Source of the DNA: a virus
Direction: 5' to 3' (one strand)
Virus genome (UHGV): UHGV-2159551
DNA length: 10,006 bases
This document shows positions 1,317-1,739 of this stretch, in pieces. Positions within the stretch are counted from its first letter, which is position 1, and each line of letters starts with the position of its first letter. The position numbers and the translations under genes were made by a program. The notes under the pieces were generated by a model. That model was given only the letters and a program-made list of their open reading frames with translations, did no database searches and had not been told where the DNA came from.

Positions 1317-1739
1317 TTACCAATAATAAGAGTTTCTTCTGTGCCACCAATAAAGCAGACCGTATCCGACGATAAGAATACCGAAAAACATTAACGACAT
1401 TCCCCAGCCAGTTCCGTACCACGAAACCATATCATCGAAAACCAACCCACCCATTTCACGTACTCCGGCAGCTTCCTTAAGAATTGGTTTGAATACCGGA
1501 ATCAGAAGGGCGATCGCCAGTGGAGCACCCCAGCGAACAAGGCCTGTTTCCATTTTGATCCCGAAAAAGATCCCCGCCCCAACAACAAGCAGCCAGACTA
1601 TCAGGCCAGGCGCAGTTTCCAGTGCTGTTTGCCATTCAACATCGAAAGTTTTCATTAGCCAGGCAACAACTGCCAGACAGAAAGCAAATACGCCGACGAC
1701 AACCAGTTCAACGCCGCTTGTTTCGTTATTTCTACTCAT
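1317..1739 (-). CDS. Small integral membrane protein (about 4 predicted TM helices), 140 aa, function unknown
   Basis: ORF from track; four hydrophobic stretches (LVVVGVFAFCLAVVAWLM, GLIVWLLVVGAGIFFGI, GAPLAIALLIPVF, WGMSLMFFGILIVGYGLLYWW). AAGGA/AAAGG immediately upstream of the ATG on the minus strand. Confidence 0.65.
   Translation of the reverse strand: MSRNNETSGVELVVVGVFAFCLAVVAWLMKTFDVEWQTALETAPGLIVWLLVVGAGIFFGIKMETGLVRWGAPLAIALLIPVFKPILKEAAGVREMGGLVFDDMVSWYGTGWGMSLMFFGILIVGYGLLYWWHRRNSYYW

Follow-up and report, generated by a model that had tools for sequence, protein, structure and literature searches.

A gene for a predicted four-helix membrane protein holds a constant place between exchangeable regulators and an exchangeable defence slot in dif-integrating inoviruses

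The gene at 1317..1739 (minus strand) of the window, the 10,006-nucleotide stretch of viral DNA analysed here, is an accessory gene that stands alone and keeps a fixed place in the repressor arm of enterobacterial inoviruses that integrate at dif, both CUS-1/YpfPhi-like and UPPhi-like; around it, regulator, backbone and cargo can all be exchanged. The order of the locus is constant and runs regulator, two-hairpin spacer, membrane gene, variable cargo and attP hairpin, and the membrane gene marks the edge of a slot in which defence genes are swapped. The best explanation overall is that an accessory gene of the repressor arm serves at the same time as an arm for cargo exchange and encodes an exclusion protein made in the lysogen; as a whole this explanation is offered tentatively, at somewhat less than even confidence.

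Results

The coding sequence begins with an ATG, the earliest start codon available past the upstream stop, specifies 140 aa and is preceded, 9 nt 5' of the start, by a Shine-Dalgarno sequence (AAGGA, 1749-1753, minus strand), which by blastn falls within the minimal conserved block common even to Rosenbergiella/Izhakiella phages. Given that pairs of homologues have a dN/dS of 0.01-0.12 with dS of up to ~1.7, the membrane gene is a real gene under strong purifying selection. The antisense ORFs lying over it (1489..1779 on the plus strand and others) were rejected as genes, the substitutions fitting the minus-strand frame, and a pure recombination spacer with no protein function is ruled out by a dN/dS of ~0.05. 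The product is identical to WP_001527022 of E. coli VR50, where it is annotated as a hypothetical protein, and is covered from end to end by the phrog_4174 profile (E 1.6e-85, profile positions 1-140 aligned to residues 1-140); the same profile also matches distant relatives at other loci, at 1e-13 to 1e-36. PHROG 4174 is an unnamed phage protein family with no function assigned, and the family is small, with ~40 clusters (50% identity) in a set of 1.8 billion proteins.

Searches of Pfam, NCBIfam and PADLOC gave no match to the 140-aa protein (0 PADLOC families at E up to 0.1), and 30 family members searched against Pfam at E up to 10 gave noise matches only. A profile search of PDB sequences returned chance matches (E of at least 0.017), Foldseek against BFVD had a top E of 0.96, and tblastn against 50,697 INPHARED phage records found no match to the protein; in a megablast of the full window against phages, the end of IS629 was the sole match. 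Similarity to xafT or FtsK was sought and not found, and a link to either was rejected. The original prediction had set the gene outside the Ff morphogenesis set, and this stands: the core genes were all found elsewhere in the window, and no homology to an inovirus core protein was found in Pfam, NCBIfam or PHROG.

The description of the product as a 4-TM protein encoded between the regulator and a cargo nuclease is likewise borne out. Kyte-Doolittle hydropathy identified four hydrophobic segments (residues ~10-29, 44-61, 70-84 and 109-132), and AlphaFold2 returned four long helices at a pLDDT of 66.7 from close homologues only and, from a diverse alignment, helices at 6-32, 36-63, 67-90 and 111-137 with a pLDDT of 86.0 and a pTM of 0.73. 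The protein is therefore modelled as a polytopic inner-membrane protein with four TM helices. The topology, as read from the hydropathy, the AlphaFold2 helices and the distribution of charge across the family (net charge -0.4 at the N-terminus, -0.7 in loop 1, +0.2 in loop 2, -1.6 in loop 3 and +1.2 at the C-terminus), is probably N-in/C-in with two acidic periplasmic loops, and is not secure since the positive-inside bias is modest. The protein is small and glycine-rich, with GxxxG-type motifs in TM2 and TM4, and the residues conserved across the family include P73, P85, W-Y-G at 107-109 and G-Y at 125-126. A lipoprotein or secreted protein was considered and rejected, a lipobox and a cleavable signal both being absent.

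The membrane gene is carried by 128 of 5426 complete E. coli genomes (~2%), with enrichment in extraintestinal and animal-associated strains such as UTI89, NC101 and VR50, which are model ExPEC strains, and occurs further in Klebsiella, Salmonella, Yersinia, Pantoea and other Enterobacterales. In lysogens it occurs in tandem arrays, with as many as 16 copies in one genome. Five more distant relatives (27-38% identity) also belong to inoviruses, where they lie right behind a small regulator divergent from rep. Outside the inoviruses, one relative adjoins a type II CBASS at the lysis cassette of a prophage, where matches to known families were sought for the two ORFs upstream and none were found, and a plasmid-borne relative (23% identical, E 5e-6 to the profile) lies inside the pil/T4SS region of a conjugative element. 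These non-inovirus relatives are only 23-31% identical and may differ in function. Some distant relatives are on short contigs or are IS-flanked copies, and their context is uninformative.

What travels with the gene was followed in 35 related loci in which its product is conserved at 88-100% aa identity. The regulators ahead of it belong to at least two unrelated families with several subtypes, the backbones that carry it number at least three (G2P at 100%, at 86% or undetectable), and at least 10 cargo sets lie behind it, two loci having no cargo at all. The same protein is found in phages with unrelated Rep, g3p and g6p, and between the window and locus L006 it is 99% identical against 86% for G2P. 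It had been suggested that the gene may form one accessory module with the nuclease cassette, perhaps as its membrane component. This is contradicted by the survey, as the gene assorts independently of the cargo: the REase and DUF6953 pair of the window recurs in only 5 of the 35 loci, with at least nine other cargo sets elsewhere, and the REase cargo is present in ~23 of the ~128 E. coli genomes that carry the membrane gene. As to whether the gene follows the cargo pair or the regulator, it travels with neither specifically, because both vary around it, and what is retained is its constant position between them. Its accessory status, by contrast with the proposed link to the nuclease, is upheld, given that L007 is complete and shares the backbone and regulator of L006 and yet is without the gene.

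Within the window the slot holds two genes on the minus strand, co-oriented, as had been noted, with the membrane gene and the regulator. The first (456..1250, 264 aa), separated from the membrane gene by the predicted gap of 66 bp, has a C-terminal DpnII-MboI-type REase domain (Pfam PF18742, 6.9e-59) and matches the PADLOC models Aga_Helical-REase (1.3e-34) and, in its N-terminal part, PDC-S35 (3.6e-11). The second (179..445, 88 aa) is a DUF6953 protein (Pfam PF22266, 1.8e-28) that always accompanies the first in the surveyed loci. Across the loci Pfam and PADLOC identify AbiJ_NTD4 with DUF7014, CAP12/Pycsar TIR and DpnII-MboI REase cargos. Between the stop codon of the membrane gene and the attP hairpin, the slot either contains genes of defence type, among them REase-like, AbiJ-like and Pycsar-type TIR genes, or is empty. 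Cargos follow on the same strand after spacers of 28-140 bp, and some have TM segments of their own (proteins of 374, 240 and 262 aa). They also occur apart from the membrane gene: homologues of the REase are stand-alone on ~200 plasmids (IncX and others), a homologue of the AbiJ-like cargo is found on IncF plasmids, and in L007 a relative of the 98+262 cassette lies directly behind the regulator.

The far side of the slot is anchored by a forked hairpin with inverted Xer-arm-like sequences, a CTXphi-type attP (76..175; -50.9 kcal/mol, z -8.3), which contains an imperfect dif junction (79-111) and a strong GC stem (113-144) that is also the terminator of the leftward operon. The hairpin is conserved at 91-100% in all loci beside differing cargos, and in L032 and L033 it begins 7 bp past the stop codon of the membrane gene. 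A perfect E. coli dif (attR; 9581..9608, plus strand, 28/28 match, 0 expected by chance) closes the prophage, and positions 1-93 of the window are repeated at 9505-9597. Every close carrier of the membrane gene is a dif integrator with this same attP hairpin.

The locus has the features expected of the flanks of a defence hotspot, namely conserved flanks, sharp breakpoints (1312/1317 and ~176-181) and unrelated, defence-enriched cargos. When positions 1-2500 of the window were compared with the loci by blastn, the conserved blocks of eleven loci began at 1312 or 1317, and the distal breakpoint of the conserved module is therefore placed at 1312..1317, where homology between phages with differing cargo ends with the stop codon of this gene. 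A second breakpoint coincides with the stop codon of the regulator (1828/1840), leaving a minimal block of 1317-1756. Within the membrane gene, the share of site entropy that cargo type accounts for rises from 63% at the 5' end through 72% in the middle to 93% in the 3' third (p=0.0005), against 20-28% for regulator type, and the gene is heavily mosaic, with 169 of 378 site pairs failing the four-gamete test and an Rm of at least 12. From the SNPs of the 3' third that follow cargo type, together with this mosaicism, we infer that the membrane gene doubles as a homology arm for cargo exchange, for which the attP hairpin would be the other arm.

The gene upstream on the same strand, ~100 bp away, encodes an HTH_3 (RstR/cI-like) regulator of 148 aa (1839..2285, minus strand; Pfam HTH_3 1.6e-09, phrog_3557) that NCBIfam phage_RstR matches weakly; YPO2273, at the equivalent position in YpfPhi, is described as an RstR homologue (PMC4266046). 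The 101-nt spacer between regulator and membrane gene is structured (-28.6 kcal/mol, z -4.6; every shuffle folded less well). Hairpin 1 (1812..1827, minus strand), with a 6-bp stem and a GGAA loop, lies right after the stop codon of the regulator, and its pairing is kept across regulator types (GTCTCA/TGAGAC, GTACCA/TGGTAC, GTATGG/CCATAC and ACCGTGG/CCACGGT). Hairpin 2 (1782..1810, minus strand), the terminator-like structure of the original prediction, is real and has a 10-bp stem and a 9-nt loop followed by CUUUAUU on the minus strand; a simple terminator scan missed it because the loop exceeds the limit of the scan. The two-hairpin layout is present in every regulator type with its sequences replaced, and also in L007, which is without the membrane gene. 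The hairpins are structured but U-poor. Hairpin 2 is likely to be a leaky terminator or an RNA-stability element, and possibly a ssDNA element.

A promoter-like site on the minus strand was sought in 1740-1840 and none was found. The 66-bp gap between membrane gene and cargo is without significant structure (z +0.93), and the only strong terminator of the leftward arm is the stem at 113-144. The membrane gene is probably on the same transcript as the regulator and the cargo, a shared transcript with the cargo being probable because no terminator lies between the two. Judged from these sequence features, it would most likely be expressed when transcription of the repressor gene continues past the leaky hairpins, and such read-through would place the protein in the lysogenic, repressed state. 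Co-transcription with the regulator is not universal, however, since a terminator and a promoter of its own lie upstream of one distant family member (L044).

Discussion

The position of the membrane gene recalls the attL-adjacent ORFs of CUS-1 (orf1 and orf1a) and YpfPhi (YPO2271 and YPO2272), which are variable between near-identical phages and whose function is unexplained (PMC4266046). Like these, it is encoded on the strand opposite the phage genes, with an RstR-like regulator on one side and the dif-side end on the other. Given that the dif prophage of UTI89 (O18:K1:H7) carries the membrane gene and a 369-aa ORF at the place of orf1 and orf1a, the gene is probably one of these two, as judged from its position in UTI89 and the published description (PMC4266046). 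YpfPhi differs in that it is reported to have unrelated ORFs at this place (PMC4266046). The literature on the two phages treats the segment as variable as a whole, whereas here one gene is constant and the distal part alone varies.

The slot beyond the membrane gene is comparable to the hypervariable pHVRs of Vibrio CTX-I inoviruses, into which diverse anti-phage genes are exchanged by HGT (PMC12715192). The likeness to these regions, and to the defence hotspots of P2/P4-like elements, lies in a short slot of fixed position with conserved flanks and diverse defence cargo, and with the Vibrio regions it extends to the setting, which is a Xer-dependent inovirus with the slot close to its lysogeny/attachment end. 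The Vibrio slot, however, lies between zot and xafT, the gene of a soluble Xer activator, while the present slot lies between the 4-TM gene and the attP hairpin in the repressor arm, and no xafT-like gene was seen here. The SNP gradient that marks the flanking gene as a crossover arm comes from the present analysis.

The constant place of the membrane gene in front of interchangeable defence genes raises the possibility that its product is a shared membrane partner, a common RexB-like pore or anchor that the downstream sensors and nucleases require, which would make the locus a defence platform of one effector and many sensors. The cargo is defence-like and is always directly downstream on the same strand at 28-140 bp, in the window with no terminator between, and one family member adjoins CBASS. 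There is also a precedent in the cI-rexA-rexB operon of lambda, in which RexB, a 4-TM inner-membrane protein of ~144 aa, is produced from the repressor transcript next to an exclusion or defence function; it would resemble the membrane protein in size, TM count and operon position. In contrast to RexB, the membrane gene has no fixed RexA-like partner, comes first and sometimes stands without any partner, as in the two cargo-less loci. Moreover, most cargos come with effector domains (REase, TIR, AbiJ) or TM segments of their own, relatives of the cargos stand alone elsewhere (the IncX REase, the IncF AbiJ-like gene and the L007 cassette), and no Pfam or PADLOC model matched the membrane protein or 30 relatives, although these libraries may not include RexB. 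A shared partner is for these reasons very unlikely, and a universal membrane hub into which swapped-in cargos plug, with the coding sequence as landing pad and the cargo-less phages as empty chassis, is slightly less probable still. Equally improbable is a membrane toxin or holin-like addiction element, in which a small pore-former restrained by the regulator or another phage product would stabilise the prophage or kill cells upon derepression. The glycine-rich TM segments with their GxxxG-type motifs would suit such a protein, Phage_holin_3_6 matches 2 of 30 family members at noise level (E 0.33), and TA modules are known from inoviruses (PMC12328805). Against it, no conserved antitoxin-like partner accompanies the gene, the regulators being of unrelated families and the downstream genes variable, up to 16 copies per genome are tolerated, no holin or toxin family matched at a meaningful E, and the phage has no endolysin.

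Two further readings would have the protein benefit the phage or the host rather than exclude other phages, and both are unlikely, the second somewhat more so. The protein may assist the phage life cycle by anchoring or modulating the repressor or the replication switch, by dampening envelope stress from pI/pIV or by assisting Xer-dependent integration and excision. This would fit a place beside the regulator that several inovirus lineages retain even where identity has fallen to 27%, the restriction of close carriers to dif integrators with one attP hairpin, and a purifying selection stronger than that on rep, as in the comparison of the window with L006. It fits poorly with L007, which lacks the gene despite the backbone and regulator of L006, with YpfPhi, which is described without it and still makes virions and integrates (PMC4266046), and with the presence of the same protein in phages with unrelated Rep, g3p and g6p and of relatives outside the inoviruses. 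Alternatively, the gene may be a host-fitness moron, a lysogenic-conversion factor that alters the physiology of the envelope (stress, handling of ions or small molecules, tolerance of serum or bile) with no part in conflict between phages, and that contributes to the in-vivo fitness effects of CUS-1 and YpfPhi. Enrichment in extraintestinal and animal-associated E. coli and the expected expression from the repressor arm are consistent with this, and both phages modestly raise in-vivo fitness, with the attL-side ORFs named as candidates (PMC4266046). However, the phenotype reported for CUS-1 was traced to puvA, which encodes a virion protein, and not to this ORF (PMC4266046), the neighbours of the membrane gene are of defence type and not virulence genes, and similarity of the 140-aa protein to transporters or stress proteins was sought and not found.

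The most plausible role, although only as a guess at well below even odds, is that of an entry or superinfection-exclusion protein expressed by the lysogen. Superinfection exclusion by prophages and entry exclusion by plasmids are usually the work of small polytopic inner-membrane proteins, and inoviruses and conjugation alike bring ssDNA across the inner membrane. TraS of F and Eex of SXT/R391 are small polytopic inner-membrane proteins with which a resident element stops incoming ssDNA at the inner membrane; the membrane protein would be like them in being small and polytopic, and one 23%-identical relative lies in a pil/T4SS region. The absence of the gene from L007 and the family members beside CBASS and in the pil/T4SS region hint that the protein may act at the level of the host cell rather than in virion production. 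Exclusion would also suit the place of the gene on the repressor arm and its independence of immunity type and of g3p type. SieA of P22, gp15 of HK97, Imm of T4 and PfsE of Pf4 are small inner-membrane proteins, made by a resident phage, that block entry or pilus-dependent uptake (PMC10883804, PMC8764522, PMC3594210). The membrane gene is similarly accessory, moron-like, horizontally mobile and without enzymatic domains, although these proteins have no homology to its product. PfsE differs further in being ~30 aa long and encoded in the structural operon, against four TM helices and the repressor arm here. Made by the prophage, an inner-membrane exclusion protein would block a step in the entry of incoming phage DNA, for which the TolQRA-dependent translocation used by inoviruses is a candidate; the block would be independent of immunity type and of the receptor-binding g3p type, and the outcome would be protection of the lysogen beyond repressor immunity. 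Against exclusion stand the tandem arrays of up to 16 copies in lysogens, which show that re-integration is not prevented, although arrays can also stem from intracellular replicative forms, and the partial protection that g3p expression and the repressor already provide among related phages (PMC4266046).

Ever since CUS-1 was described in 2002, the ORFs at the dif side have been labelled unexplained, and a constant membrane gene is now separated from the variable defence slot. For annotators, the cargo begins at the stop codon of the membrane gene, and exchange by homology, with this gene and the attP hairpin as its two arms, would explain how filamentous prophages shuffle defence genes. If the product is not an exclusion protein, the gene is an ordinary conserved hypothetical one. 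It offers a compact and cheap target for asking what protection, besides repressor immunity, chronic ssDNA phages give their lysogens and, if exclusion regardless of immunity type proves true, it would matter for the ecology of inoviruses and for phage display and therapy in carrier strains.

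Prophage organization

The window corresponds to a single unit of a filamentous phage (inovirus) that is inserted as a prophage at dif in E. coli. Of its plus-strand genes, those for the G2P replication protein (2457-3509), a G5P-like ssDNA-binding protein (3521-3838), Zot/pI (6440-7465) and the secretin/pIV (7465-8709) were assigned by Pfam, and the major coat, g3p and g6p genes alongside them by position. The left end carries four minus-strand genes: an HTH_3 regulator (1839-2285), the membrane gene (1317-1739), a cargo gene with a DpnII-MboI-type REase domain (456-1250) and the gene for a DUF6953 protein (179-445). 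The prophage is closed by a dif site at 9581-9608 that matches E. coli perfectly (28/28 bp) and, given that positions 1-93 repeat 9505-9597 (the sequence before and into dif), the start of the window falls in the final part of the previous tandem copy, and one unit spans 9504 bp. Where the two copies meet (79-111), dif is imperfect, with 11 nt in its central region. Positions 100-2500 are 100% identical to E. coli VR50, and UTI89 (O18:K1:H7) carries the same backbone at dif, beside hipBA, which identifies a phage of the CUS-1/YpfPhi kind described in PMC4266046.

Two 82-aa ORFs between the secretin gene and dif (8798-9046 and 9192-9440), kept in related prophages and without a match in protein-family searches, are probably the YPO2280a/YPO2281-type right-end ORFs mentioned in PMC4266046. 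To the right of dif, 9896-10006 runs into an IS3-family (IS629-like) element and is the sole part of the window matching the phage database, there in Stx-converting phages. Within VR50 (L001, 13476-15051) the first of the prophage copies breaks off within g3p and is fused directly to the regulator of the next, which has neither membrane gene nor cargo; another related locus, L009, holds a similar rearranged tandem. An identical phage, REase cargo and membrane gene included, is integrated in tandem on an IncFIB/IncHI1B plasmid of K. pneumoniae (L052; NZ_CP132684.1, 70338-80478), indicating that Xer sites on plasmids also serve such inoviruses and that their range extends across genera.

A forked hairpin of 100 nt (-50.9 kcal/mol, z -8.3) spans positions 76-175; it carries inverted Xer-arm-like sequences, is laid out as the folded ssDNA attP of CTXphi and contains the imperfect junction site 79-111. 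The GC stem of this attP hairpin (113-144), followed by UUUUC, looks like the terminator of the leftward operon. The hairpin core (102-173) also occurs, at ~93% identity, on 441 plasmids, mainly conjugative E. coli plasmids of the IncF group. The single plasmid context examined (L051, 2501-2571) has it immediately downstream of an STM4504/AbiJ-like gene that has diverged (69% nt) and is of the same kind as one phage cargo; candidates for the plasmid core are a phage remnant, an Xer site or that gene's own terminator.

The membrane protein and its family

Strand and coordinates of the ORF match the original prediction, and the ratio dN/dS of 0.01-0.12 among homologues, with synonymous divergence up to ~1-1.7 per site, shows that the gene is real. 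Four transmembrane helices had also been proposed; hydropathy gives four hydrophobic segments (residues ~10-29, 44-61, 70-84 and 109-132) and the AlphaFold2 model four long helices, with the inclusion of distant relatives in the alignment raising the pLDDT from 66.7 to 86.0 (pTM 0.73). Modest charge bias, in the protein itself and across the family, favours a predicted N-in/C-in topology with two acidic periplasmic loops.

The protein has no match in Pfam, NCBIfam, PADLOC or PDB sequences, its sole family match being PHROG 4174, which is annotated as function-unknown. The structure-based search proposed with the original prediction was run and returned generic helical bundles only. HMMER, run exhaustively over 1.84 billion cluster representatives, recovered only 41 proteins of 110-160 aa, sharing P73, P85, a W-Y-G before the last helix and a G-Y within it.

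Distant relatives (P0055, P0059, P0054, P0067 and L036; 27-38% identity) occupy five inovirus lineages, directly after a small regulator divergent from rep; in L044, which is among them, the gene is preceded by a strong terminator and a good sigma-70-like promoter. Three further lineages lie elsewhere: one relative is found at the margin of a prophage lysis cassette, beside type II CBASS, one lies inside the pil/T4SS region of a conjugative element, and one is IS-flanked. In three genomes (L037-L039, 5125-6417) a 31%-identical member and two unannotated ORFs of 108 and 161 aa make up a conserved trio, neighboured by a type II CBASS operon (SMODS, ThiF, JAB, SAVED) and a prophage lysis cassette; in one of the three an IS lies between trio and CBASS.

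The literature describes the attL-side ORFs of CUS-1 (orf1/orf1a) and YpfPhi (YPO2271/2272) as mutually unrelated and function-unknown, as does the UPPhi paper for its dif-side ORFs. Since the UTI89 prophage has the membrane gene and a 369-aa ORF at the orf1/orf1a position, the membrane gene is probably one of CUS-1 orf1/orf1a.

Neighbourhood of the membrane gene

Close homologues (88-100% aa identity) were surveyed at 35 loci from complete E. coli genomes, GTDB (one genome per species) and IMG/VR, and the order is fixed: regulator, hairpin spacer, membrane gene, cargo, attP hairpin. The regulators belong to two unrelated families, HTH_3 proteins of 148-174 aa, with subtypes mutually only ~40% identical, and proteins of 60-89 aa with no Pfam match. 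The backbones are of the window type (G2P 97-100% identical, 570-aa g3p, DUF2523), UPPhi/IKe-like (G2P 86% identical, DUF5455) or those of Rosenbergiella/Izhakiella phages, whose Rep has no detectable relation. The cargo is REase+DUF6953, a Zn-ribbon 91-aa + 159-aa pair, a 155+123-aa pair, a 309-aa AbiJ_NTD4+DUF7014 protein, a 110-114-aa protein, a 374-aa TM protein, an 89-101+240-aa set, a 98+262-aa set, a 321-aa protein or a 368-aa protein with a CAP12/Pycsar-type TIR domain. Two loci (L032 and L033) have no cargo, the attP hairpin starting 7 bp past the membrane gene stop codon. The nucleotide block in common runs from the membrane gene stop codon (1312/1317) to the regulator stop codon (1828/1840), and in the most distant phages covers only 1317-1756, the ORF and its ribosome-binding site.

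The proposal that the protein belongs to the nuclease cassette does not hold, given that the gene occurs with at least nine other cargo sets and with none, and that REase homologues lie on plasmids without it. These homologues (40-45% identity) stand alone on ~200 plasmids; on an IncX1 example one adjoins an Abi gene, with the membrane gene and DUF6953 both absent. IncF plasmids likewise hold the diverged AbiJ-like gene and the hairpin core without the membrane gene. As to whether the gene accompanies cargo or regulator, it follows neither the cassette nor any one regulator and is instead a constant of position. That it is accessory is borne out by L007, a sibling phage sharing its backbone with L006, where a relative of the 98+262 cassette directly follows the regulator and the membrane gene is absent. 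The gene is present in 128/5426 complete E. coli genomes, and ~23 of them have the REase cargo too. The two main types of regulator occur in ~99 and 48, from which it follows that most, not all, such prophages carry it.

Probable recombination at the cargo slot

Among close copies, cargo type accounts for 93% of per-site SNP entropy in the 3'-terminal third of the gene, where shuffled labels give 49% (p=0.0005); its share is 72% in the middle and 63% at the 5' end, and that of regulator type only 20-28%. The four-gamete test is failed by 169/378 informative-site pairs, with at least 12 recombination events within 423 bp. This linkage of SNPs to cargo, the four-gamete failures and the sharp breakpoints indicate that cargo is swapped by homologous recombination, one crossover apparently falling inside the membrane gene and the other in the attP hairpin, in samples that are phylogenetically non-independent.

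The slot (window 179-1250; cargo positions of L002-L035) holds at least ten unrelated gene sets, including several pairs of a small helical protein and a C-terminally membrane-anchored ~240-aa protein; for most cargo proteins no family assignment was found.

Spacers and expression

The 66-bp spacer between membrane gene and cargo is unstructured. That between regulator and membrane gene has two clear hairpins, 1812-1827 and 1782-1810 (whole-spacer z -4.6), the latter followed by a weak U-tract, and a consensus scan of it found no minus-strand promoter-like site. In the window, the membrane protein would be made by hairpin read-through of the regulator transcript, on which the cargo would come next, up to the strong stem 113-144; a place on the regulator transcript implies expression in the repressed, lysogenic state.

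Two to three hairpins stand in tandem after the regulator stop at 1754-1828 and its equivalents (L005, L006, L007, L010, L012, L032, L035, L041), with every regulator type, the stem sequences differing and the pairing kept; L007 retains them, the membrane gene being absent. Apart from leaky termination, a role as an ssDNA element is conceivable, for instance as the minus-strand origin or a signal for packaging.

Discussion

The membrane gene encodes a strongly constrained polytopic membrane protein on the repressor arm, dispensable for at least some sibling phages and independent of immunity type, receptor-binding protein and cargo. It is tentatively suggested that this is an inner-membrane exclusion protein acting on a step common to incoming phages, for example TolQRA-dependent ssDNA entry. 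Small membrane proteins encoded at comparable prophage positions usually prove to be exclusion proteins, such a role would account for the lack of dependence on repressor and g3p type, and relatives are found in further resident mobile elements, one of which is conjugative and also faces incoming ssDNA. Against it count the absence of a phenotype and of similarity to any known exclusion protein, tandem arrays of up to 16 copies, and the protection that repressor and g3p already give.

Of the alternatives, a protein that aids the phage itself, in regulation, assembly or integration, is the most plausible, albeit unlikely, followed by a host envelope-fitness factor, which is rather less so. A shared membrane partner for the cargo is improbable, given the cargo-less phages, the self-sufficient cargo domains and the cargo relatives that occur without the membrane gene; a membrane toxin or addiction element ranks last, at very low probability.

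The membrane gene, from an uncharacterised family, is of a known kind: a prophage's accessory membrane gene bordering a hypervariable defence slot. Vibrio CTX-I inoviruses have hypervariable defence regions between zot and xafT (PMC12715192), and the cargo slot is their enterobacterial counterpart, although it lies between the membrane gene and the attP hairpin. New are the membrane gene's constancy whichever regulator, backbone or cargo accompanies it, the forms with an empty slot, and an SNP gradient that marks this gene as crossover arm; the slot itself is a compact source of candidate defence genes.
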